Assembly: GCA_001244265.2 (NCBI GenBank)
Contig: CDLV01000004.1
Location: 1,674,001-1,738,000 of the forward strand
Direction of reading: 5' to 3'
Origin: Microbotryum violaceum
Lineage: Eukaryota
Length of the DNA stretch: 64,000 nucleotides
In this document: positions 30,379-63,145 of the stretch, in pieces
Position numbering within the stretch: the first letter of the stretch is position 1
How the letters are laid out: each line of letters starts with the position of its first letter
Translations under genes and position numbers: made by a program
Notes under the pieces: model-generated
The model's input: only the letters and a program-made list of their open reading frames with translations
Databases searched by the model: none
What the model was told of the DNA's origin: nothing

Positions 30379-31415
30379 AGGACCCCCGAAACCTCAGCCG
30401 GAGGCGCATGTTTTTTTTTGACATTTTGAGGACCCAAAATCCTGAAAATCGTCGAAGCGCATCACAAAAAATTGACATTTTGGGACGAAACACCCGTTTC
30501 GCCCCCGAGGCGCATGCCCAGATTTTGACATTTTCCCGTGAGTCGGCCCAATTTTGGCCTACCCTGAGCAGCCTACGGCATGGCTTTGGGCCCGTTTGCC
30601 TTCGCTTCGAAACGCGCTTCGCGATGCTCGCGCTTGAACAAGTCACTAGCCATTTTCGGTAATCACTTTAGTTCAGTGGCTGTTAGAGAATATTAGGGGT
30701 TCCGAGCAAAAGACGTTCAAAGCTGGGCGCTGCGAGCTCAACGATGGATTGACAAAATTGTCGTTATCAACGAAATTGACCGCAACCGTATCGCTGTCGC
30801 ACGTCGCATACTGAACGGACTGCAATGGCAAGAGCAAGACGGGCTTCTACCATTGCCTCTTCTTGCAAGTGGAACGAGTTTGGTTTATCTCCTGAGATCC
30901 TTAAGTCAGTACACCAATCCTTCAGCTGGCCACTCGTATTCATCTCGTATCTGAGGCATATTCGCGTCTCTACCCAGGTCATGATTGGCTCGGTGAAGCC
31001 GCGGTGAACTTGTCAGTAGACAGCGTCCTTCGAGCTGGACGAGTGCAGAATCCCGATTTCGAAACATCGTATGGACTTATACCCTCCACCTTCATCTCCT
31101 TGGTAATGGCTCGCCCTCCCGACTCGGGTCCTCATTCGATCTTCAAAGCCTGCTTTTTCGGCCCGCCAAACCAGTATCGGAATCTCATCGAGCTAGGCGA
31201 TTGCATGCGCAACACGCCGACCTCAAAGTCTGCTTATGGAGAAGAAGCGCAGTCTATCGGAATTGGTACGTTGTTTTGAGTGGCAGTTGAGCTGTGAAGT
31301 TCTCGTTTGACACAAGTCTTGTGTCCTACAGTGCGATACATCTATAGCAAAGCGACAACAAACCACTGCAACCAAGACACGCTCGCCTCGTTGGTTCTAC
31401 TCTCAAATGTCGTCT
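30379..31415 (+). mobile_element. Truncated second copy of the 10243-12309 TIR element, about 90 bp upstream of the eIF5A start codon
   Basis: 30379-30690 matches 10243-10560, and 31235-31415 matches 11506-11685. The right TIR is absent. Confidence 0.85.
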
Positions 31416-40612: not shown

Positions 40613-45978
<5,366 letters not shown>

Positions 45979-46099: not shown

Positions 46100-49000
46100 G
46101 ACAAATCTGGGCCCATTTCAGCCACGTTCGGCTTGGCCTCCGCCAGCTCCGCCCCCGACCGCACGACCAAAAAAAACGTCGAGTGGAACAGGCTCTGGCT
46201 GCCCAGACTGAAGATCTGTCCAACAGGGCTCAGCCCGAGTCTCTGTCAAAAACTGCCCGCCCCAAGTTCTCCTTCAACTTTCCTTCCAATACTGCCACTC
46301 AAACTGCCCCCCAGCCAAGGGTCCGCATTAGAGCAGATCACCGCCAGATCTGATCTGATCTGATCTGAATTTTTCTGATTCTGCCTTGATTGATCTGATC
46401 TGAGACATGAAATTGCCTAATTTAACACAGAGAGACTTCTACATGTCTACATGTTGAAATCCTCATCTTCTTCCTCCACAACCTCATCTTCATCCTCATC
46501 CTTATTTTCATATCCTCCAATGTGATCACCTTGCTAAGCCGCCGCTTTTTGGAGGAGCTCCCCGCTTTGATGACTGAATTGGGTCGCATGATCCCTATGT
46601 GCATGAGAAAGTGTTTGCAATGAGATGGCGCGATCCGTTCTCTCTTCGGATCAGGTGCGCCGCAGTTGAAATCACAATGGCACCATCTAGGTACCGCCTA
46701 CTTTTGTAATTTTTTTCCTCGAGGCTTGATTGATCTGAACTTGATCTGACCCCCGTCAGATCAGATCAGACAGATCTGAAACTGATTAGATCTGATCTGA
46801 ACTGAACTGATCTAATGCGGACCCTTGCCCCCAGCCTGCCTCCAACCAGGGAACTGCCTCTTCCCTCGTTGAAAAATCCTCCGAGTCCCCCAACTCGGCG
46901 TCAGCCTGGACCTCTTCCCCGCAACACCACCCACATCCATCTCATCCACAAACGCGGCGAGACGGATCAGCTCTCGAACAAACGCTCCATATCGCTCATC
47001 AATGCGGCCGAGCGCATCATCTCGCAAGCCCACAGCCAGCGCCTCGCTCCCTTGCTCGAGTCCCTGATCGGCCCAACCCAACGTGGCTTTGTTCCGAACC
47101 GTTGGATCGACACGAAAATCGCTGAGGTCCAGTGTCTCATGGACCCTGGACTTCCGGGCTCAACACCCGTGTCCGGCATGTTAGTGGTGATGGACTTTGA
47201 AAAGGCTTACGATCGTCTTTCCCACCCGTACCTTGATGCAGTCCTCTGCGCCGTTGGCCTCGGCCCCAAAGCCCGCCAATGGTACCGAGCGACCTACACC
47301 AACCAATCCGCCTCGATCTCCCTCAACGGTTGGCTCTCTGCCGCCTTCGACATCCTGTCGGGCGTTCGGCAAGGTGATCCTCTGGCTCCGTCTCTCTTCG
47401 TTCTGGCGATCGAAGGTTTTGCCTGTCAGATTCGATTGAGAGCCAAGGGCATCGATATTGCGGGCCTCCAAAACATTCGAGAACTTCTCTTTGCCGACGA
47501 TGCTTGCTGCGCACTCCACAACCTCTCGGACCTCGACCACCTCAATCGGGCGATCGAGCTTTACGAACGGGCAAGTGCCAGCAAGCTCAGCAACGTCAAA
47601 TCTTTCCTCTACCCCTTGGAGCTTTTCGGGATCGGCCGATCGCCCCAGAGCTCGGGACCTGGCGTCTCAGCGATTCGCAGTTTCGCTACTACTTAGTATT
47701 CAGGTCGGGGTGGAGATCGCCGAGGATGCGGGCTGGGAAGATGCAAGGCCTCGACCGTCGCTCGGATACGCTCAATTCCGATGTACGATCTCCCATATGC
47801 AGCCAAGTGTTCGATCATTAACATCTACTGCTACACAAAGATCCTGTACTACAGCCGATTCCTCCCGCGCCCAAGAGCGTTGTCAAGGAGATCGAGGAGG
47901 CCGTCATGCTCGCCATTCACGATCGGGCTTCGGATGGTACTCAGCAACGTCCGAAGGTCTCCCGGTCACGCCTCTGCACCCCTCTTGATCACGGCGGCTT
48001 CGGTTTGATTGATCTGCCTCAGCGTCTAGCAATCGATCACGCGAAGTGGGTCTTCCAGCTCCGGGCCCCGGACGGCTGCTTCACACACCACCTCTTTGAC
48101 ATCCGCATCCGCCTCCAGGCACCAAACGAACCAACCCCTTTCACCTTGTCCAGACCGGCCCCCGACCAGCATCGTTGCCCTTGGACTTGGATCTGGTGGG
48201 CTTACTTTTGCCATCCTCCCCAAAGTGGGACCATGCGGTGAGAAAAACGACAAAACTTCTTCCTGCTCGTTGGGTCCGATACTTTGAAGCCTGGGCATTG
48301 GTGACCACGCTCAATCCCCCGGAACTCTCCAAGAGCCAGAACCTCGAGCAATGGGCGACGCACGTACTCTACTTCCCAGCGGGCCACGGAATACAACTCT
48401 CGGTAAACCCGACGCTTTTTCGAGGGCCCGATGGCGAGGTGATGACCCCGTCTTCGTTTGTGAACGCGTTCAAACGCCACCAAGTCTTCATCCTCCCCCT
48501 TATCTTCCCCAAGGGACACCAGAAGGTATTCGATCTGCCTGAGCAACGTTGAAACGTGTGGTGGAAGGCTTTTGCGCAAGGTTCGCCGGGTTCACTCGGA
48601 CGCCGAGGATACCGGCCACCTTCTCTCCCTGGGGTCCCTCCATCCGGGAAGCCAAGTCGCCTCCCCAACCAGCCCACATCCCAACAATCGATCTACCTCC
48701 CGTGTGATGTGCCTCTCGGAAGCACCGAGTGCCTGGTTCACCTCGCGGTCGGCTGCCCATTTGCCCGGCGCCTCTGGTCTGCTCTGTCCCCGACCCCCAC
48801 CCAGTCTTTGTGGACTTTGTATGCCCGGTCGTGTCTCGCTCGGAACGTCGACTTGTCGAACCACGAGTCCTCTTCTTTCACTCGATCTGGAAGCTCTGTC
48901 GCCGTCGCCGATTCTTGTCGGATCTTTTGGAACCGATCACCGAAACGGACTTCGAGGGGTTTCGAGCCTCTATTCAGGAGTCCAAGGGTCGCCTAGTGTC

Positions 49001-49263
49001 TCTGTAAGCCACCAACGGGGGTTTTAGTGGGTATGGTTGATCCTGGTTCAGGGTCAACCAGTCCTACAGTACTGGCTTCTGCCAGTGTGCGTAACAGACA
49101 GCATTCCCTCCGACGTTTCCGAAGATTTCTAGGTATTAATATAATTATGCTGTTAATGAAGTCTGTCAAATAAATAAATAAAAAGAGATGCCGGCGAAGC
49201 CGAGGATTTTTAGGCATTAATATAGATATGCTGTTAATGAAATCTATTAGATAAAAAAAAAAG
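46100..49263 (+). mobile_element. LINE copy 2: 5'-truncated, internally deleted, with 3' UTR and A-tail
   Basis: The ORF1 tail is homologous to 3100-3320 and is fused at about 46910 to RT (HIHLIHKRGE, LFADD). It has a C-terminal C...HLAVGC zinc-finger remnant, an AT-rich 3' UTR and an A-run at about 49253-49262. Confidence 0.9.
46316..46827. mobile_element. hAT-type MITE (512 bp) inserted in LINE ORF1
   Basis: Perfect 17-bp TIR CAAGGGTCCGCATTAGA / TCTAATGCGGACCCTTG, perfect 8-bp TSD CCCCCAGC, and subterminal GATCT repeats. Confidence 0.95.
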
Positions 49264-50084
49264 AAGCTCACTGTAAGGCGCCGCTCCGCTTACGCCTCAC
49301 GACGACCTCGAGCCGACCTCTGCGGCCTCACGCTTGCCCTCGCGCGCGGCGCCGCCGCGTCTCTTGCTTGACCTTAGTCCTTTTAGTAGTCTTTCTTCGC
49401 CTGCGAATTACACCGTTTGATCCTTTCAGTTTGGATTCGGAACCAGTGAGGCTCGAGAGCAATCTCGTGCCTTTCACTCGCGTCGACCCTGATTAATGGA
49501 GGTTGTCGGTTGTGGACAGGTTGTGGGCGTAAGTCCTAGTGCTTCTGAAACATAGCATGATGATTCAGAGACGCATTTTTTGTCTCTTTTCAGCTCATTT
49601 CCTCGTGCAGATCATTCGAGTGACGACTCTCTTTGAGGTTTATACCCTGGCCCATGGCTTTACGCATAACGTAAATATCTCATAGAAACTTCGTCCATTG
49701 CATAACCAAGGTCCGCAGGGGATCACGAAGGAGGGGAACACGAAGGAGGGGAAGAATCCGTCCCGGCTAAGTGGTGCTCAGCCGCCCCCCCCCCCCCCCC
49801 CCCCCCATGGGACAGGAGGTCTCGATCAGAATGTGATTTGAGTCGATCGCCGCGAGTCCCGGCCTTCTGGTGGACTGAGGACTCGATAGAGTAGGGTTGA
49901 CGTCGAAGAAGTACGAGTATGGTCAGCCGCATGTGATACATGCCAAGTCCTACTGGGATCAATAGGACTTCAGATCGATCCCCATTGACAGATCTATCAG
50001 ACTTACACATCGGCTGCTAGCCACCGTGACAAGCCCTACTTAATGCAGTTCCGAAGGGCCACAACTTTAGGCAGGCGTCCCCCT

Positions 50085-50285
50085 TCAGGCGATGATGCAG
50101 ACCGCAACCCAAAAGTTGGACATGGGATTGCGCTCCTCGTCGACAAGATTCCCAGTGTTGTCCTTCTCAGAGTGAGAGTAGGTGCTCGTGACGTTGACTT
50201 GAGACCCGCGCTCTTCGAGGCGGCTCGGGGCAGGCTGGGATTTGGCCGAGACGGCGAAAGGGGTGGACAATGCGATGGGGGCCAT
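50085..50285 (-). CDS. Mating pheromone (lipopeptide) precursor, 66 aa, C-terminal CAAX (CIIA)
   Basis: MAPIALSTPF...VDEER-NPMSNFWVAV-CIIA*. It is a short intronless ORF with an ER processing site 11 residues before the CAAX Cys, and TATAAA at 50465-50460. Confidence 0.82.
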   Translation of the reverse strand: MAPIALSTPFAVSAKSQPAPSRLEERGSQVNVTSTYSHSEKDNTGNLVDEERNPMSNFWVAVCIIA

Positions 50286-50440
50286 GGTAGCGAAGTTGAG
50301 CGTTCGGGTAGAGGTGTCGTGAGGAAAGAGTGAACGAAGCGAGCGAGTGTTGAAGAAGAGACCAAGAGCACTGCACCGATTTCCTTCTGGTTTTGGAAGC
50401 GCACGCCGCCAGCATGCACTAAGCCAGCTTCATTGTATTG

Positions 50441-50658
50441 ACAAAGAGAGCGCCGTCCCTTTATACCTACGGCACGGTCACCGGACCGCGCGGAGCGCGG
50501 AGCGCCGAATCGCACCACGCCGTCGGGTCACATAGGGAAATATAGATCGCCACCGAAAAATGACGATCGATCCCGAGATTTGATTCGGCGGGCCCTTTGG
50601 CCAGTGCTCTAGGGCACTGCTCATGAACAATACGATAGGCAACATACCCACAAAGAAG
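50441..50658 (-). promoter_or_regulatory. Putative pheromone-gene promoter: TATA box and PRE-like HMG-box motifs
   Basis: ACAAAGAGA (50441), ATAAAGGGA (50464-50456, -), ACATAGGGA (50530) and ACAAAGAAG (50650), compared with the Ustilago PRE ACAAAGGGA. Confidence 0.4.
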
Positions 50659-50727
50659 GTGCAGCCGGGGAGATTCAGCGGGTAGACCGAGTTGCGCGAG
50701 AATTATGACACCCTCAAGGCATCCCTA

Positions 50728-51665
50728 CACATGCGCGCGCGAAATTTATGGCGGTCCTGCGAAATCAGTGCGTGACCCGTATGGCGAGCGCCTGTACGGC
50801 AGGTGTAAAATACCTGGCAGGTATTGTTTACTAATGCCGTATGGCGCGTCGCCTACGGAAACCGTCAGGTTATGGCGCGCCACCTACGGATCCCGGAGCC
50901 AAGGCTACGCTTAAGCTTAGTTAGTCAACTAACTACGCCACCGCAAATAGTTAACTAACTATCCCAACTATTGACGCATAGTTGATAGTTAGTTAGTTCT
51001 GGCTCGGAGGATAAGGCGCGCCACAGGAACTAGAGAAACAATTCACCTCCGAGTCGATGATGATGATGAGGTGTAGGTCTGTCATGTAGAATCACGTTCA
51101 AATGACAGATTACTGTTGTCAACGGTTGTTTCAAGAGTAATTATACCGCTCGAGTTCATATACACTATACTATTACACTATCATAAGAGGGTAGTTTGAG
51201 AGCATGGAATCGAGCGGCTCTCACAAGTCGGTGGCAGAGCCAGAGGATCAATGGGCTCAATACAACCACACAATTGCTGCATACTGCTGAGCCGTATGGG
51301 GTAATTGCGTTGGGTAAGCCCTCAACGACGCTCGGCGTGCGTCATTATTAGGGGCCAATTTGATAGTTTTTTATAGTTAACTATCCCAACTATAGTTAGT
51401 TAACTAACTATTGGGTCATAGTTGATAGTTAGATAGTTATGGCTGGAAGGTGGGATTTTACACGTAGTTAACTAACTAACTATGGAGCAACTAAGCTTAA
51501 GCGTAGCCTTGCGGGCCGGAGGGTTACGGCCTGACGTCGCCTGACGGTTTCCGTAGGTGACGCGCCTTATGGCACCCGTAGATCCCAGAATCTGTATGGT
51601 CACCTTACAAAAGCGGCAAGTCACAAATACACAAGCGCGCGCGAAACTTATTACTACCTCTACTA
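50728..51665 (+). mobile_element. CAC-ended DNA transposon termini (50728 and 51630) with an internal ~35-bp inverted repeat, hosting a MITE
   Basis: TA|CACATGCGCGCGCGAAATTTATGG and TA|CACAAGCGCGCGCGAAACTTA. 50835-50869 is inverted at 51540-51574. Confidence 0.55.
50900..51511. mobile_element. hAT-like MITE (612 bp)
   Basis: Perfect 23-bp TIR CAAGGCTACGCTTAAGCTTAGTT / AACTAAGCTTAAGCGTAGCCTTG with subterminal AACTA/TAGTT repeats. No clear TSD. Confidence 0.85.
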
Positions 51666-51699
51666 GGTTCGGCGGCGCGCGGAGCGCGCCACCTCACAT

Positions 51700-53730
51700 T
51701 GAGAATCAGCAGTTCTGTTACTTTATTGCAGATGGCTACGGTTCTACACTGCTTTAATCTATGCGCAATCTTTGCTGACCTTGAGACCTTCGAGAGATCG
51801 CAGCGTTCACAGGCGGTGGATCCATTGGACGAAGTTGATCCTCCGGCAGTGGACGCAGTGCAATCGGTGACTGCGGCGACATCCACCGCGACGAAGGCGT
51901 CCAAATCCGCGCTGTAGAAGGTTTCAGCGTCACCCGGCAGCAGGTCGAGCACCATGTCGTTGATGTGATCCACCTACAAATTTTTGGGCGTCAGTCTTGC
52001 TCGCTCTCGGAAGTATTCGACTTTTTCGCCTATCGATATATTGTCCAGTTCGAGCGCGGGGACGGGATATACGTGTCTGATCAACCTCGACATCTTCGAC
52101 GACTCTACGTGCAATGTTCCGAAACATCGACGGTGCTGCATCGGTGCCTCGTCCCAGAGCTCGGCGAGCTGTTCTTGTTTCGGAACATTGCACGTAGAGT
52201 CGTCGAAGATGTCGATCGGGATCTTGAACCGTGAATGTGCCGTGCTGCCTTTTGGCAGTAGCCGTGCAGCAATACCCGATGATGCAACGGCAAGAGCGTA
52301 TGTTCCCTCTCACTGAATCCGAGCAAGGACCGTTTCTTCCAAGAACGTTTTGCCTGTCCCTCCCGGAGCATCAACGAAATCGACGATTGTATAGGCGATG
52401 ACTTGGGAATAGCGGGAAGGCACTGCTTCGGATCCCCTGTGATGTTACAGTCCAACCGGTCAGTCATGCTGCCCTGCGCTTTGCTTTTGAAAGATTGGCA
52501 CATACCTGCCAACCCGACGGTCATTCCACCGAACCGAGCCGTGGAATAACGGGAAGGCATTGCTTCGGATTTGCTGTGATGTTACAGTCCAACCGATCAT
52601 TAGTCATGCTGCCCTGCGTTTTGCTTTTGAAAGTTTGGCACACACCTGCCAACGTGATGATCACCCCACCGAACCGAGACGTTGAGGATCTGGCACGGGA
52701 TGGTGAGCCGCAATTCACGGAACCTGTTTTTATTGCGTGATTCGTCCTTTAGAACTATCAGTATTCTTGCTGTTGTTCATCTGTAGCAATGTCAGTGAAG
52801 ACTCACATTTAGTGTCCCATGAACCCGGATTCTCAACCGTACGAAGTCAATCCTTCCGCTGTGTCACTGACGTCCAATGTCTGTTCTTCGTATCAATTTT
52901 TTCATCATATCTAAGACTACACAGCCATGTCAAGGGATGACTCACACATGCAGTATCATTAGCTGACGGCGAAGGAACACCTCGAGGGTTGACATTCAAA
53001 GAGGACGCGTTGAAGGGAATTTCTGCTTGGTAGCGTTCCATTAGCTTCTGAACAATCCCACACCAAGAGCAGTTCATGAAGTTACTTACTCGAATTCGTA
53101 GCTATGTTGCATGCGGCAGGCATTTCTTAACACCGTATTCGTTGCAGAGCTTCCACGACGACCGCTTCGGATGTCGCGAGTTCGAGGTGGCGATGGGATG
53201 AGGTGCGATGGGCAAGGTGTGAAGAGCAGGAGGGAGAAAGATGGAGAAGCCAGCGCCTCAGTTTGAACCGGACTCATAGAATGTCGTGGAAGGCCGCGGA
53301 ACGTCGTGGAGTGAAGCCCCGTGACACGCTGGCGGGGCCCCTAACGGCGGCATTGGCGCACTGGCCGACGCTACCCGAGGTCCGGAACTGGTTCAAGTGG
53401 ACGAACGAATCTCAAGCTTGGAGGTGAAGAAGTGCGGGCCCGTTGTACTTGCCGTGCGACATTGAGACTGCCTGCTGCCGGTGCAGTTGACTTGACGAAC
53501 CAGTTTGCGCGACGTCGTCTTGATCGGTTTCGCGCGGCTGCTTCTCGCGAAGGCGTCGTTGTCGCTGAGCTTCGGCGATTGTTCGAGGTTGCTGGCGGCG
53601 GGGTCTGTGCGATTAGAGCGGGAGTCGGGAGGAGTCGGAATGTGCGGAGGAGGAGCGCGAGCAGCTGCCGATGTCTCTGCTGCCCGCTGCTCTTCGTGAA
53701 GATTGTTGTACAGGAGACGGGGCATGAAAG
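51700..53730 (-). pseudogene. Degenerate Helitron PIF1-like helicase region
   Basis: NNLHEEQRAA, RFGGMTVGLAG...GDPKQCLPAIP, LIRHVYP and DHINDMVLDLLPGDAETFYSAD occur in the expected order. Confidence 0.75.
52087..52215. repeat. Perfect 40-bp inverted repeat with a 49-nt loop
   Basis: 52087-52126 is the exact reverse complement of 52176-52215. Confidence 0.93.
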
Positions 53731-54752
53731 CTTGCAGATGACTGCTCGGCAGTGGCAGAACTGGATGGTTGAAGGGACTACACTACGATGTGGCAGGCAC
53801 GCAAAACCGGTCGTCTGGGAAGCAGAGAGGCATGTGCCAGGCCGCTTTGATGGGAAATGGAACCTTGGCGAAGGTAGGCGAAACGGTCTGTCACTGGCCC
53901 CATGCTGAATCAGCGCTAGCTAGTTCCGGGGACGCGCTAGACCGAGAGCTGTCGATGACGTCACGCCACGTGATTTTTCTTTTGTTCTTTGACGTTCTTT
54001 GTCTAGACAACAGTCGGTTTTAGAGGATAGTAGGATTAGTAGATAAGTTTTATTACCCTATTACCTTATTACCCTAGTTACCCTAGTTACCCTATAGCTA
54101 TAGTAGCTAGTAGCTAGTAAAAAAAAAGTGTGAGTTAAGGAATGTACCTAAAATCGCTGTTTTTAACTAGGTTGCGGCCCGGAGGGCCGCCTGTGGTGGA
54201 TGCACCAGCATATTGTTGTGTCTGCCGCACCTGCCTGTGGTGTTGGGGTTCCGATCAGAAGTCATGTACAAGCCCTGTGGTGACTTTTGTATTTTCCGCG
54301 CCGTTCCAACGAAGCTACAGCGCTCCCAGTATTTTCTTTCTTTTCTTCGCTGACATAAACCAATGCTTCCACTCATATTGCATTTAATGAACCGCAAGCG
54401 CGTGGCTTTGAATGATATTGCTTCTACAGCAGAGCTCTGCCTGACGCGCGAGGCGAGGGCTGGCGTTTGCCACGTGATGCGGTGCGCCGGCGGTGTCAGT
54501 GTCGTTCCGGCAGTCGACCAGCGGCATTAGGGGCTGAACAACAAATTTGCCCGTCCGGCAGTCGACCAGCGATATTAGGGGCTGAACAACAAATTAAACC
54601 AGGTAAATAACCCTGCGCCACTCCCTCGAACCTTTCCTTTCTCCCTCCCACTCTCAAGAACAAACCCTCGCTACTATGCCCCGGTGCCAAGGTCGCCAGG
54701 GAGGGCCATCGCAACCTCGCCAAGTTCTTGGGCGCGAGGGTAGCGCTGTACC

Positions 54753-54998
54753 GCTGCTGGGCGCCCCGCGGCTCGAGCCTCCTCTTCGTCCCGCTCCGAT
54801 CAACAGAATCAGCCCCCGCGCGTCATGACAACAATTCAACCGATCTTGGCATTGCGACACGTATACGAGCCCGCCGTGCAGCTGTGCAGAACGGACAGCG
54901 TGGTCAGCGCGATGGCCAACTCGACGCTGGGCTCGCCCCACCACCACCTCCTCCGCAAAGGCGAGTGCGCCGGGCTCGAATCGCGTTGAAACCCCTCA
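54753..54998 (+). repeat. Inverted copy of Helitron 5' sequence 56798-57043
   Basis: Near-identical reverse complement over about 245 bp. Confidence 0.9.
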
Positions 54999-55139
54999 CC
55001 AGTGGGAACCCGTTAAATTAACGGGAGGATGAATTAAAACAATAGCAGGATAATCGAACAGTCTACATGATATCAGCGCAGAGGTTAAGAAAACACAATA
55101 CGAAGTACAGCAAAGAAACAAAATCCATTCATCTTATAT

Positions 55140-57140
55140 TCATCGCCGAAACAGCCTGCATGTCGCTTGTTGCCGGACTTGGCTTCAAACACTCGTGCAA
55201 TGAGATCCGGACGGTTGCATCCTGTATCGGCCCCAGTGCAGCCTTGGTAAACAAATCGGTGAGTCGGAGTCGTACGTCGTCGTGATGAGCAGCGGAGGCT
55301 TTCCATGGTTGACAACGCACGCCATCGCATCCTGGTATCGCTCCGTGATGTCGCGATTTGGTTCAGAGTCAAGCCGTTGATGCCTTGGGTCGTGGTGAGG
55401 CGTAGGTTCTCTTGATGCAACCGGATGTGTTGAGTCAGTCGGTCTTGACTTGGGAGTACATCCGTAAATCACAGACTCCAGGAAGGGACGTTGGGTGCAA
55501 TGCGGGATTGAGAAGTACTCGTCGCCTTTGGCAAGTAGTAAAGAATTGTGAACGCGAGACTCGCCACCTCGACCTCGACCCCTTTACTTGACCTTCGTCC
55601 TAGGTGTTCAAAAGTTCAATGTCAGTCTGTGCTTGCGCCTTCGGCAGAATGGAACATCAGAGAAAGAGCCGAAGACGCGTACGTTCACCATCACCATTCT
55701 CTTCGTCCCCTTCCTCGCCGTCTTCATCCTCATCGTCACGGTCTTCGTCCTCCTGTTCGTCTTCTTCATCTGGACCAAGGCCGGCAAGTAGCTCGCGCAA
55801 TTGGACACCATTGTCGATCTGCTCTCGGTTTCTGGCGATTGGCGGCCCGGCTTGGTGGAACCCGCAAAAAGGAATGTTGGGGTGGAAGCCATCTTCCCCT
55901 GCAGGAAAAAGTAGTGGGTAACGGAGAGGCATAGCGGACGGATGGAGCGAGCCAACGATTTGGTACTTGGGCCGACCATCGGGACATCGATCACCGTGCA
56001 CCTGGAGAATAAGGTCTTGCGGTCCACGATCTCCCGTGTTGGTGTCGGAATCGCAGATAAGCATCGCCATTTCCGTGCTCGACGTAGGAGGGTTGTGGGT
56101 GCGTCGGTCCTGGCTTGGCGGGAGGCAGAGGCGCAGGATCCATTCTTTGGCCGTATCCCAACCTGCGCGAGGTTTGGCCGATGCGAACTCCCTCACAAAG
56201 TGATTCTTGGTACGCAACATGGACTCGAACTTGGTCAAAGTAGATCGTTGCATGTGACTGTCTGCGCCGTCGGGTTCAAGTCGAGTGTCGGTGGCCTCGG
56301 CCGGGTTGATCAGCCATGTTTGAGCAATGGCTGGGCATTGATTCACGGCAGGGATCAGGGCGCCGAGTCGATGGTAGAGGCGACCAAACACGCAAAACAC
56401 GGGGGGTCCTAGCGTGCCCACTTGAGTTTGGTCCCAATGGGCAGCGAGCGAAGTGAATGAAAACGCGTTGTTGTACGACCGAGCGTTCTCGCGGAACGCT
56501 TTCGCTTCTGTGTGCGTGGGAAGATTGTCGTGGAAATATCGTCGCACAGTTCAGCATGTGGGCCTACTGCAGACAGACGTTGTTGGACGGAGCAACTGAC
56601 CGCTAGCCGAGCCTTCAAGAAGCTGCCGATACTCGAGATTGGGCTGGGGAGGGGGAGGTAGCCGCACCTTGCCCTGCGAGCAGCACTCGCCGAAGTGTTT
56701 GGTCGACTTGGACATTTCGCACTCCCAGTGCCGAGCCTTGCAGTGGGTGCACACGGCCGTCTGGGGGCCGAGGTCGTCGCGGATCGAAACGTGGGCTTGA
56801 GGGGTTTGAGCGCGATTCGAGCCCGGCGCACTCGCCTTTGCGGAGGAGGTGGTGGTGGGGCGAGCCCAGCGTCGAGTTGGCCATCGCGCTGACCACGCTG
56901 TCCGTTCTGCACAGCTGCACGGCGGGCTCGTATACGTGTCGCAATGCCAAGATCGGTTGAATTGTTGTCATGACGCGCGGGGGCTGATTCTGTTGATCGG
57001 AGCGGGACGAAGAGGAGGCTCGAGCCGCGGGACGCCCAGCAGCAGGCGCTCGAGCAGGGTGGGGGTGGGGGGTTCTCAGTCCCGGCGCCCTGCGCAGCGA
57101 GGACAAGGGGCCCAGTGCTGGTGGGCGCTGTCCGGCCCAC
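55140..57140 (-). pseudogene. Helitron Rep N-terminal region (zinc finger + Helitron_like_N), truncated
   Basis: CTHCKARHW...CCSQGKV, FRENARSYNNAFSFTS, GRLYHRLG, PLRYPLLFPAGEDGF, YQDAMACVVNHGKP and NRPDLIARVFEAK. Confidence 0.9.
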
Positions 57141-57210
57141 ACCATTTCCTAGATACGACGAAGGCTCAAAGCTGTGATTGGAGGAGAACTGCCGTTGATG
57201 CGCTGAAAGC

Positions 57211-60200
57211 TGTTAGAAGTGGGGTCTGAGAGCTTAACTCATTGCTATTAATCTTGGTTAATACTTTATTCTGCGCGCGCGCCTATCTTTGTCTTTGCGT
57301 CTTTTTTCCTTCTGGGTTCGTTCTCCACGCTATTCTCATCATCTCACTCGTGTATCTCGGAGCTGAGTCGTGGAGTACCTCTTAGGTTAGTTACTGCAAA
57401 GCCACGCTATTCTCATCATCTCACTCGTGTATCTCGGAGCTGAGTCGTGGAGTACCTCTTAGTCCTTGTTGCAACAGGTTATGAGCTCAACGGGCGAATC
57501 CGACTTCCCCAACGGGTCGGGCAATCGCTTGTATCTCAAGGACACACAAGGGTACAAGAGCTGGTCACAACGTGCGTTTATCAATCTTCGAGCTGGCAAA
57601 GTATGGGATGTCGTCAATCAATCCATCAACTCCCTTGTCGCGGACTATCGGTCCACGCTCGTTATCGCACATGCAACTGCGTCCGTCGCGCCAGTTGAAC
57701 CAGCCTCCTCCGGCTTTAGCGGGCTTGGGGGGGGGGGGGGGGGGGGGGCTCTGGTTCTGCGCACTCGGACGCCTCGCCCAGGCTCACCAGCGTTCAAGTT
57801 GCGGACAAGGTCGCGGAATATCGCGAACAGGCCATCCGCCGCAACGATTTGGCATGCAAGTACATCGCCAATTCGATTTCTGAGGAACAGACGTCTCACT
57901 TGATTCATCTTACCTCGGCGTACAAGATGTGGGACACCCTCCGTGGTCTCCACTCTCACGGTCGCCCGAGTCGCACTATGGACCTCCTCAACACTCTAGC
58001 GCAACCTTACTCTGGGGATATTCCTTTTAAGGAATTCGTCAACAAGGTCAAGATCGCCATGACCGATTTTCAGAACCTCGGAGCTCCGCTTCCGCATTGG
58101 CTGTTTGCAGGCATGCTCGTTTGGTCGCTCCCAGCCCAGTATGACTCGATCGTTGGGAACCTTGCCTCCGACATCGACATCCACATGGATTGGAACACGT
58201 TCTATCCGAAACTCCTGATGAACGTCGAAATGGTTGATACCCAAAACAAACAAAAGGAATCGTTATCCGCTCGGATCGTTGACGATACTAGCCTCGTCGC
58301 CCGTATTTCCACCACAGCGCAAAAGGACTACTCCAAGTCGTATTGTTCGCGCTGCAAAGCACTGGGACACGAGCGTGGTTGGCGTCTCTGTCCAAGCAGG
58401 AACAAGGATGCGAGCGCTCCCGCTTCCTCGGACTCAAATTCGAACGTAGCTGCCATTGGTGTAGATGAATCTGCATTGATGACCTACACTTTCCCCCATT
58501 CGCGAACGATGCCACGTTTTCCATGGATCATTGACTCGGGTGCTAAGGTCCATTGCGTTGGAGACAAGTTGGTCCTATCGGACGTTGTCTCTGAGCCTCT
58601 CAAAATTTCTGTCGCCGATCAATCTCAAATCGAATCTCCCGGTCATGGCTCAGTGACGTTTCTTACCTCATATGGCGCTCGTATCACCATTAAGATGGTC
58701 TACTACATGCCCGGTGCTCAATGCGGTTTTATCTCCATCGACCGTCTGTTGGAATCGATGACGTACGCTGTTGGTCCCCAAAGCAATCTCATTTTCAGCA
58801 TCCGCGGCAAGTCGATTCTGCGCTCGCTTCCTGGTCGGGGGTTTGTCATGGATGCAGCTCCCGTTCAGCCTATCATGTCATCCTCACCGCCTTCAATGGT
58901 CGGAGCCAATCGTCTCACTGGAACCTGTACGTTGATGGAAGCACATCGGAAGTTGGGCCATCAATCTCCTGCGGCGATCGTTTTGGCCGTCAATCCGGGG
59001 CTATCACTGGCATCACTCTGAAGGACGAAAAGGTTACTCCTTGCTTCTCGTGCATCCAGGCCAAGTCAAAGCGATCACCCTTCTCCAACAAGAGTACCGA
59101 AGCGCCTCATGCACTCTACCGCGTCTTCATTGATCTCGGGTTTGTTGAACACCCCAATCACCATGGCGATACTATCTATCTCGCTATCGTGGATCAGTAT
59201 TCGACGGCTAAATGGACGATCGTGCTAAAGGACAAGAGGGCTGAGACGATTATCGAAGCATGGTCGAAATTTCAAGCCGAGTCCGAGCGTCAAACGGGTC
59301 AGAAAATCAAGAGGGTCAGATCGGACAATGGTCGTGAATTCGACAACTCATTGTTCCGGGCTCTTCTTGAAAAGCAGGGCATCATCGTGGAATTCACGGC
59401 CCCCTATACTCCGGAGCAAAATGGTCAAGTAGAGCGACTCAATGGATCTCTCATGGGTCTCGTTGGATCAATGCTCCTCGACTCCGGTCTTCCCATGCGA
59501 TTCTGGTCAGATGCTCTGGCCGTCGCGACATTTGTTCTCAATCGTCGACCACATCCTCGTATTCAAGGAAAAACGGCAATCGAAGTTCTTCTCGGCAAGA
59601 AGCCTAGTCTTGCTCATCTTCAGCCATTCGGATCTACGGCGTTTGTCCACGTTCCCAAGGAGCGTCGCTCCAAGCTTGCACCTCGCTCCATTCAGGGAGT
59701 TTTCATCGGGTACTCCGGTGAATACAACTACCGTGTCTGGGTCCAATCGTCAAAACATGTCTACGTTTCGCGTCACGTCACATTCCTTGAGACTCCTTCC
59801 GTCGTCACTTCGTCTCAAGATCGTGCGGACGCTTCTGATCCCGTTCATCATTCTCAACCTCCTCATCCTCCTCATCCTCCGCCAGATGTGTTGCCGTCTA
59901 CACCAACTTCACCTGTTGTGGATCCAACTTTGCCGGATCCACAGCCTCCTCCGGTGGTTCCAATTGGAGTTGGTCAACAGGGGGGGTCTCTTGCAGTCGT
60001 TCCTCGTAAGGATGACGACAATGACGACAACGATGGACTCGACGATGGACCTGATAACTATCATGACGCAGAAGAACCACTCGACGGTGAGGCGGAAGTC
60101 GCTCTCGCTCCTCGTGAAGGTTACGCCATCGTTTGCACTGGTCCAAATCCTGGCCAATTCGAGAATGTTGATCTTTCCATCTCCTGGCAGTCGAAGCAAC

Positions 60201-61189
60201 AATCTATGATCGCTACATCCACTACTGAAGCCAAAATCCTCTCTGCATCCTCAGCCACTCGTGAAGCAATCTGGCTCCGTCGTTTGGCTGGTGATGTCGG
60301 CATTCCACAAGCACAGCCTACTATCATTCAAGAGGACAACGCCGCATGCATCCAGATCGCCAAGGATCCGGTCTGTCATTATATGGTTGCATCGTCCTTC
60401 AGTCTACGTATAGTACCTGTGATGGTACTTCATCTTGAGCCTCTAGCGACTTCATGAATCCCTTCAGCACCTCATTTGTCTTACCCTTTTTTAGTCACTA
60501 TTAGCTCTTTATTATCTCCGCTTATCATCCCTTCCTAGTCCTTCTGGAGTTTGTCCCTTAGCCTTTGGCCACTCTGTTCTCGTCCCGTTCCATTGGACTG
60601 AGTCGTGGTCTTCATCAGGTATGCATTCTCTGGAATCCTACTCACTCTGTTCTCGTCCCGTTCCATTGGACTGAGTCGTGGTCTTCATCAGTTACCACAT
60701 GAGAACATTTTTACAATACGGTCGATCACATGCGAACCAAGCACTTCGACATTGCTCATTTGTTCGTTCGAGAACGGGTTGCTTCTGGCGAGGTCGAACT
60801 TGAATACTGCCCTACCCACGTCAATGCCGCGGATATTATGACGAAGCCTTTGGGATTTCAACGCTTTGATCAACTTCGTGCGCTACTTGGAATGGTCTCG
60901 TTAGTCTCTTTGACCGGTGGGAGTGTTAGAAATAGGGTCTGAGAGCCTAACTCATTGCTATTAGTCTTGGTTAATACTTTATTCTGCGCGCGCGCCTATC
61001 TTTGTCTTTGCGTCTTTTTTCCTTCTGGGTTCCTTCTCCATGCTATTCTCATCATCTCAATCGTGTATCTCGGAGCTGAGTCGTGGAGTACCTCTTAGGT
61101 TAGTTACTGCAAAGCCACGCTATTCTCATCATCTCACTCGTGTATCTCGGAGCTGAGTCGTGGAGTACCTCTTAGTCCTTGTTGCAACA
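57211..61189 (+). mobile_element. Copia element lacking reverse transcriptase
   Basis: 266-bp LTRs at 57211-57476 and 60924-61189, TSD AAAGC, PBS GGTTATGAGC, PPT GGTGGGAG. Gag (CSRCKALGHE), protease (WIIDSGA) and integrase (RSDNGREF) are fused at about 60175 to mid-RNase H (ISWQSKQQ). Confidence 0.95.
60374..60718. mobile_element. Solo LTR (345 bp) inserted in Copia RNase H
   Basis: TGTCA...CAATA ends with a TSD CGGTC and an internal ~50-bp direct repeat. Excision restores KDPV-DHMRTKHFD. Confidence 0.88.
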
Positions 61190-61722: not shown

Positions 61723-63145
61723 ATGATGCACATCACCCCCCGTTCCAAGCTCGTGTTCCGCAACCAGGCGTTGCTCTCGGCGTTCCGGACCATAAACCGT
61801 CCCGCCTCGTCCTTGAGTACCCCTGCCGGCACGCCCTGCTCGCGCGCCCCTGAGTCCTCGCCGGCCGCTCCTTGCCGAGCTTTGGCGACGACGACGACGA
61901 CTCCTACCGTCGAGTCCGCCGATCTGATGTCGCCGATCACTCCGATTGACTTGGACACCGTCATTCCCGAGCCAACGATGACCGAAAAAACGACCACCAC
62001 CTCCGACGAGCTCGAGCTACCGTCGCTGCCTGAAGCCCTCCTCGTTACGCGGCACGCCATGTCCTTTGGCATCCCCAAAAGAGTCCCCTCCCTGGCCAAC
62101 AAAGGACTCGCCGAGGTCGTTTTCGGTCAAGGTCGGAAAGGTTTGACACCCGATTCGCCGTGGTTCCCCAAGCATCTCGAGTTATTGGGCGATCGTGAAG
62201 CGAGTCGAGTCGCGTCGCAAGTCCTTCTGCTCGCGCTACAAATGATGGAGAATACTCGCAAGCCCCGACAAAAGACCTTGAATATGAGCCAATTGTAAGT
62301 CATCTTCGAGAATAGACTAAGACAATAATCAAGATGGAAGTGCTGAACCACTCCTTCTACTGCTTTATTCAAGGTCAAGCGCCATGACGACCAATAAGAT
62401 CATGTACGAGTGGGCTCGCGAGGTCGGCCTAGTCCAGGAACTCGAACGCAAAGGTGGGATGAGTGAAGGCCAGATCAAGACCATTTCCATCAAGAAGCTC
62501 GCCGACCACTTTGAAACTTTCCTCGGCGCTCTTCACGTCGACCAAGGTACCGCAGGGCCGGACTACTTCTTGGCTCCCCTGTTCGTGCGCGAGTATAATC
62601 GCCTGTTGGGGGTCAACCTCCTCCTCGATGGTGCTTGTAGCGAACGCTCGCCTCAAGCTTTCAAGACTTGGATTCCCAATACGATATCGTTTGAGGACTA
62701 CAAGGATATGCAAGGCGTACTCGAGGCTTCGAAGCGAACGACGGGAGAGACGGATCGACTGAACACCAAGAGAACTGATGAATCGACAGCGACCGCTCCG
62801 GCGCCAACTTCGGCCCCGTCCAAGCCGTTGTTCCCTTCCAAGCCCGCAGCGAGCGTCAAGACAAGCGGACCTGTGTCGAAGACACCCAAATCCAAGAAGC
62901 CAAGCGTTTCTACCCCGCTTTCAGCGCCCTTGTTGGAGAAGAAGGCCAAAGCGAACGAACCAAAGTCCAAGCCTCAACCTCAAGTCACACCAAAGAAGCC
63001 GACAGCGCCCAAGTTGCCGCAGATCAAGCCCAAGAGAGTCTCGGTCGTAATGGCCAAAGCTTCTGTTGTCGAGACCAGGGCGATTTCGACGACGGCAGTT
63101 CAGTCGGGCAAGAAGGGTAAAGGTGCTCGCGCCAAGGCTGAGTGA
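61723..63145 (+). CDS. Single-domain ribonuclease III family protein (exons 61723-62294, 62374-63145; 447 aa)
   Basis: KHLELLGD (cf. ERLEFLGD) and LADHFETFLGALHVDQG. A GTAAGT...AAG intron joins the two ORFs in frame (SQLSSAMTTNK). It has a Lys/Pro-rich tail and no obvious dsRBD. Confidence 0.8.

Follow-up and report, generated by a model that had tools for sequence, protein, structure and literature searches.

A conserved a2 mating-pheromone precursor gene of Microbotryum, located in transposon-rich DNA, with a spliced intron in its 3' untranslated region

The a2 mating pheromones of Microbotryum have been described by Xu, Petit and Hood (Heredity 2016; PMC4675872). In this paper, the peptide ERNPMSNFWVAVC was made as a farnesylated methyl ester and induces conjugation in a1 cells. 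This synthetic 13-mer, whose boundaries were set after those described for other basidiomycetes, is active on a1 cells only, both in M. lychnidis-dioicae and across species, and the peptide dose in the published assay is 1 mM. The a1 loci encode tandem repeats, and the a1 pheromone is an 11-mer, whereas the a2 loci each encode 'a single iteration' of the peptide. The ERNPMSNFWVAVC peptide is present in every species that yielded a2 sequences except one, and the second a2 peptide is ERNPKDNVLGGESC. One conserved a2 locus and one paralogue under relaxed selection have been proposed, and the peptide part is reported to be less conserved than the N-terminal extension. Queries with rhodotorucine A precursors (RHA) led to these Microbotryum genes (PMC4675872), and pheromone genes are routinely located by BLASTN in later genome papers (PMC12119880, PMC6581054). 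The gene is thus already known; its variation among species and the activity of its synthetic peptide, as the farnesylated methyl ester, were likewise published in 2015-16.

The rhodotorucine A precursors (RHA) of Rhodosporidium and the a1 precursors of Microbotryum, which belong to the same fungal class, also give farnesylated lipopeptides of the 11-residue class. The mfa1 and mfa2 precursors of Ustilago maydis and the a-factor precursors of Saccharomyces cerevisiae are about 36-40 amino acid residues long. Maturation of a-factor consists of farnesylation, removal of the AAX tripeptide, carboxymethylation and N-terminal trimming (PMC2148179).

The DNA analysed here, hereafter the window, is a stretch of 64 kb, and its region 50085-50285 is the published a2 mating pheromone locus of a Microbotryum species (anther smut). 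The window ORF list contains at this site, on the minus strand, an ATG-started ORF of 66 codons, whose product is MAPIALSTPFAVSAKSQPAPSRLEERGSQVNVTSTYSHSEKDNTGNLVDEERNPMSNFWVAVCIIA and whose stop codon lies at 50085-50087. The ORF and its CIIA ending are exactly as an earlier note on this DNA had described them. That this ORF is the a2 precursor coding region is also seen from its 98% identity to a gene model of M. saponariae A2 and from its uninterrupted presence in an RNA-like contig. When the translation is compared with the peptide printed in PMC4675872, the codons of ERNPMSNFWVAVC, the published synthetic 13-mer, are found at 50097-50135 (minus strand), corresponding to residues 51-63. 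Both primers given in the same paper have exact sites at the locus, phero_a2_F at 50210-50225 on the minus strand and phero_a2_R at 50047-50063 on the plus strand. They match with 0 mismatches and once each in the window, lie 163 nt apart, face each other and flank the peptide-coding part, while the chance level at up to 2 mismatches, taken as the mean over shuffles, is 0.07 and 0.03 matches. The identity of the locus is settled by the match to the published pheromone and the exact matches to both published primers, and not by the CAAX ending. Taken by itself, this ending would be weak evidence, because a six-frame scan of the window finds a second M-started ORF of 25-120 aa that ends in C-aliphatic-aliphatic-X, at 31326.

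The window locus has the same architecture as the published a2 locus of Microbotryum, namely the same 13 residues followed by a CAAX box, a single unit, both primer sites, a long conserved N-terminal extension and a more variable peptide (PMC4675872). Nothing of substance differs from that locus as it is described in the paper, in which an intron of the 3' UTR is unmentioned. The earlier note classified the ORF as a basidiomycete lipopeptide mating-pheromone precursor with a CAAX box, in agreement with the published loci, and presented it as a hidden gene. The latter claim fails, as the gene was already published in 2015 (PMC4675872). The presence of the locus assigns the window to the a2 mating type of a Microbotryum species.

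The whole precursor contains one Cys and one peptide unit. Its C-terminal end, CIIA, consists of residues 63-66, with the codon of Cys63 at 50097-50099 and those of IIA, the AAX tripeptide that is expected to be lost after prenylation of Cys63, at 50088-50096 (minus strand). Two EER sequences are present. One of them, residues 24-26, is part of the first LEER motif in the N-terminal extension (50208-50219, minus strand), whose residues L23, E25 and R26 do not vary in the alignment described below; this is the upstream EER that had been noticed before. The other, residues 50-52, stands just before NPMSNFWVAVC. When the peptide is compared with the window by tblastn, one match is obtained with an E value of 1.6e-41, and the next best has an E value of 0.25. 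A second pheromone copy is found in the 64-kb window neither by tblastn nor by a motif scan, and the a1 pheromone motif is encoded nowhere in it. The claim of a single copy without tandem repeats is thereby borne out. In this respect the window precursor differs from the RHA and Microbotryum a1 precursors, which are tandem repeats, and similarity to these precursors is detected neither by a profile search nor by a motif scan. With mfa1 and mfa2 of U. maydis and a-factor of S. cerevisiae, the window precursor shares the short length, the C-terminal CAAX box and, by analogy, the expected processing, but it is longer (66 aa) and has no detectable sequence homology to them.

If the precursor is processed by a pathway of the a-factor type, Cys63 of the CIIA box would be farnesylated, the IIA tripeptide would then be cut off, and the new C-terminal Cys would be carboxymethylated. 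The N-terminal extension of 50-52 residues would be cut away at the invariant DEER-N site or next to it, and the resulting lipopeptide would be exported and recognized by a receptor of a1 cells, presumably of the Ste3 type.

Relatives of the precursor were sought by a word-indexed protein search, in which all five candidates obtained are significant and are relatives of the precursor. Two of them, P0001 and P0002, are unnamed gene models that share a 441-kb contig in an A2-labelled assembly of M. saponariae. They are 98% and 88% identical to the query, respectively, over 100% of its length, so that full-length homologues exist in a Microbotryum a2 genome. P0005 from M. intermedium is 70% identical, and two relatives of unlabelled source, P0003 and P0004, are 84% and 73% identical. 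P0003 carries ERNPKDNVLGGESC. The exact 66-aa protein of the window is absent from the protein collection searched; the window precursor and the M. saponariae model are one residue apart (A5 for S5). An exhaustive profile search against 1.84 billion representatives gives three proteins at E values up to 0.001 (P0005, P0006 and P0007), two of which, P0005 and P0006, are true relatives. P0007 (E 6.4e-4) is a TPR protein and was set aside as a chance match. Pfam detects 0 families in the precursor, even at E values up to 10, and 0 families in the ORFs of 82 and 96 aa that overlap the locus in other frames. Profiles often fail to detect peptides that are so short and evolve so fast, and therefore the lack of a match to a curated profile weighs little.

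P0006 is a public model of 209 aa, of which the last 50 residues are 100% identical to the window precursor and the first 159 are unrelated. The first 159 residues have no match in the window and 0 Pfam families at E values up to 0.01; a Helitron-like nature of this part, which was considered, is accordingly not claimed. P0006 probably results from a prediction in another Microbotryum assembly that wrongly joined unrelated parts. The unnamed relatives, the absence of the exact protein and this one fused model indicate that short pheromone genes are still poorly handled by automatic annotation.

In the alignment of six sequences, D49, E50, E51, R52, N53, C63, I65 and A66 are invariant in all six, whereas residues 54-62 are variable and contain indels. 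A variable stretch between invariant flanks agrees with the report that the peptide is less conserved than the N-terminal extension (PMC4675872). The variant a2 paralogues of Microbotryum, for example the ERNPKDNVLGGESC form, show the same architecture, and P0002 and P0003 are 84-88% identical to the window precursor overall. However, their mature region contains substitutions and a one-codon indel, and the window contains the conserved form only.

The earlier note gave the mature peptide as an 11-mer, NPMSNFWVAVC (codons at 50097-50129, minus strand), which would be cut after Arg52, with the mechanism otherwise as above. This boundary is an assumption. Rhodotorucine A is an 11-mer and is released after a basic residue, which argues for the 11-mer, but by the usual convention for basidiomycete precursors, modelled on tremerogen A-10, the mature peptide retains the charged pair (ER, EH or DR) as its N-terminal residues. 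The alignment speaks for a cut after Arg52, in that R52 and N53 are invariant in all six sequences and the variation starts directly after them; the R-N pair is kept even in P0004, which bears an indel. The Microbotryum a1 pheromone likewise has 11 residues, but it is the 13-mer beginning with ER that has been tested in print; this 13-mer follows the basidiomycete boundaries and is both active and mating-type specific (PMC4675872). The test with a synthetic farnesylated peptide, which the earlier note had proposed, has in essence been done in print with this 13-mer, and conjugation was induced in a1 cells. The published potency does not decide between the 11-mer and the 13-mer, because a dose of 1 mM leaves room for a synthetic boundary that differs from the native one (PMC4675872). 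We regard the 13-mer starting with ER as having close to an even chance of being the native form. Secretion of the 11-mer starting with N is possible but doubtful, and a native N-terminus at another boundary is rather unlikely.

The transcript was examined in public runs. Of the 24 runs listed, 20 contain all or part of the stretch, and none of them is recorded as RNA. Four of them (X15, X17, X18 and X19) were examined; their kind is RNA by guess, with the splice junction as the sole intrinsic sign of RNA, and their contigs show neither transcript ends nor transcript levels. X15 contains one contig of 392 nt, which agrees with the window at 100% identity, lies on the minus strand and covers 50332-50007 and then 49874-49809. 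In this contig, 50007 is followed directly by 49874, and the 132 nt skipped between them begin with CT and end with AC on the plus strand and read GTAAGT...AG on the gene strand. The skipped 132-nt piece is a canonical fungal intron. Thus, with the run kinds taken as RNA by guess, the a2 gene is transcribed from the minus strand, and its mRNA, which measures 392 nt or more, has a coding region of 201 nt without interruption and a spliced intron in the 3' UTR. The description of the gene as intronless therefore holds for the coding region but not for the transcript.

The 5' UTR extends over at least 47 nt (50286-50332, minus strand), since the X15 contig begins at 50332, and contains no upstream ATG. 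The start codon lies in the context ACCATGG, which is a good start context. The first part of the 3' UTR is 78 nt long (50007-50084, minus strand), so that the donor is located 78 nt behind the stop codon. The intron (49875-50006, minus strand) has a GTAAGT donor, a branch-like CTGAC site 47 nt before its end, and an acceptor end of TCCTCAG. The second exon of the 3' UTR covers at least 66 nt (49809-49874, minus strand). A homopolymer of 22 bases, C on the plus strand and G on the gene strand, is located at 49785-49806, 3 nt past the last base covered by X15. This homopolymer probably stopped the X15 assembly, and therefore the 3' end of the mRNA is known only as a minimum extent.

X18 and X19 are runs of other organisms. 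In both of them, contigs match the window up to exactly 50007 and then continue with unlike letters. The depth in X19 is 4353 and 3755 for the pieces that end at the donor and 26.5 for the piece that enters the intron. In X17, the contig continues through the intron without splicing. Upstream of 50335, parts of the stretch have no cover in any of the four runs examined. The X19 contig differs from the window at many places within 50101-50130, in the peptide-coding part, and X18 contains both a form that shows no difference from the window throughout 50121-50294 and a variant that has three single-base insertions there. The variant forms in X18 and X19 recall the conserved and variant paralogues of PMC4675872.

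By the usual rule, an exon junction that far behind the stop codon would mark the mRNA for nonsense-mediated decay. The runs of two other organisms, X18 and X19, stop matching at the same donor position, and on this account the intron might be conserved among the a2 pheromone genes of Microbotryum and have a regulatory role, with splicing or decay gating pheromone output until mating conditions are given. The N-terminal extension might likewise have a function of its own, because it is unusually long and more conserved than the pheromone itself. We consider this combined proposal improbable. In PMC4675872, the words 'intron' and 'transcript' each have 0 occurrences. Beyond print, the present analysis adds only the 3' UTR intron, sequence evidence that this copy is expressed, and cases in which automatic annotation performs poorly; the spliced intron itself is a small added detail of gene structure.

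A candidate TATA box, TATAAA, is located at 50460-50465 on the minus strand, 175-180 nt upstream of the ATG, in accordance with the distance of about 175 nt reported in the earlier note. Two ATGs (50433 and 50415) lie between this TATAAA and the covered 5' UTR, and would be upstream ATGs only if transcription starts before them. The pheromone response element of Ustilaginales is ACAAAGGGA (PMC3248468). A motif resembling the element of U. maydis mfa1 and mfa2 is present upstream of the window gene as well, where ACAAAGAGA at 50441-50449 (plus strand) differs from ACAAAGGGA by one base. At up to 1 mismatch, 21 near-matches to ACAAAGGGA occur in the 64 kb, as compared with 13.9 expected, and this window-wide count is not significant because 6 of 100 shuffles reached 21. 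The local cluster alone is notable, with three of the 21 located within 98 nt (50441-50538); one of these three overlaps the TATA box and one does not have the ACAAAG core. The ACAAAGAGA site is therefore only a lead, a candidate response element.

The transposon setting described in the earlier note agrees with the domain and LTR scans. Retroelement domains (RVT_1, RVT_2, rve, Integrase_H2C2, gag and capsid domains) are found in 14 of the 38 ORFs scanned, and two LTR pairs are present. The 38 ORFs scanned belong to the 84 ORFs in the window that measure at least 150 aa from stop to stop. The retroelement remains are of the copia and gypsy types. On the 3' side of the gene, the nearest retroelement coding sequence is an RVT_1 remnant (46806-47696, plus strand), which ends about 2.1 kb from the known 3' end of the transcript. 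Farther on this side, a copia-type element of about 3.4 kb (41362-44768, plus strand) has 269-nt LTRs that are 98% alike. The nearest element recognized on the 5' side is a copia-type element of about 4.0 kb (57211-61189, plus strand), with 266-nt LTRs that are 97% alike. Both copia-type elements are short. As judged from the 98% and 97% likeness of their LTR pairs, they are fairly recent insertions with internal losses. A pheromone receptor gene may have introns, and none is recognized among the 38 scanned ORFs (38 of the 84 of at least 150 aa), which is no evidence of its absence. The mating-type chromosomes of Microbotryum are described as large, rearranged, transposon-rich and non-recombining, with pheromone genes mapped by BLASTN (PMC12119880, PMC6581054, PMC4379399), and the setting of the window fits this published picture.

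Almost certainly, the conserved a2 gene for the mating-pheromone precursor of Microbotryum is present in the window as a functional copy, in transposon-rich DNA of the non-recombining mating-type kind known from the genus. This conclusion is drawn because the ORF is intact, its 13 residues are active in print, the primers match exactly, relatives with invariant residues exist, a spliced contig is available and the start context is good. The copy might instead be a decaying or silent relic in transposon-rich non-recombining DNA, with mating relying on a paralogous locus. The copy does lie among retroelement remains, a conserved locus and a paralogue under relaxed selection have been proposed (PMC4675872), and the non-recombining regions of Microbotryum are reported to degenerate (PMC4379399). 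However, the peptide encoded by this intact ORF is the conserved form and not the relaxed variant, a spliced contig in a public run is 100% identical to this very copy, and the start context and splice signals are canonical, so that a relic is very improbable. A chance open frame with a CAAX-like end in GC-rich DNA, for which the similar ending of the ORF at 31326 and the 82- and 96-aa ORFs that overlap the locus might be cited, is already refuted by the identity to a published, functionally tested peptide with both primers exact, and also by conserved homologues in three or more species and by the spliced transcript, and we dismiss it.

Several other features of the window were observed besides the a2 copy. 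Adjacent direct repeats of 67 nt, 82% alike, are located at 49119-49185 and 49200-49266, about 0.6 kb past the known 3' end of the transcript. The region of about 6.6 kb upstream of the gene (50600-57200) contains ORFs of 150-300 aa, at 52105-52581, 53345-53919 and 55608-57212, that have no Pfam match; they could be unrecognized repeats or host genes split by introns. Two direct repeats of 84 nt, 87% alike and 140 nt apart from start to start, are present at 52462-52685, and the scanned ORFs there have no Pfam match. Near the end of the window, the ORF at 62321-63145 gives a weak match to Ribonuclease III (E 7e-4, below the Pfam cut-off), and this ORF could represent a host-gene exon.
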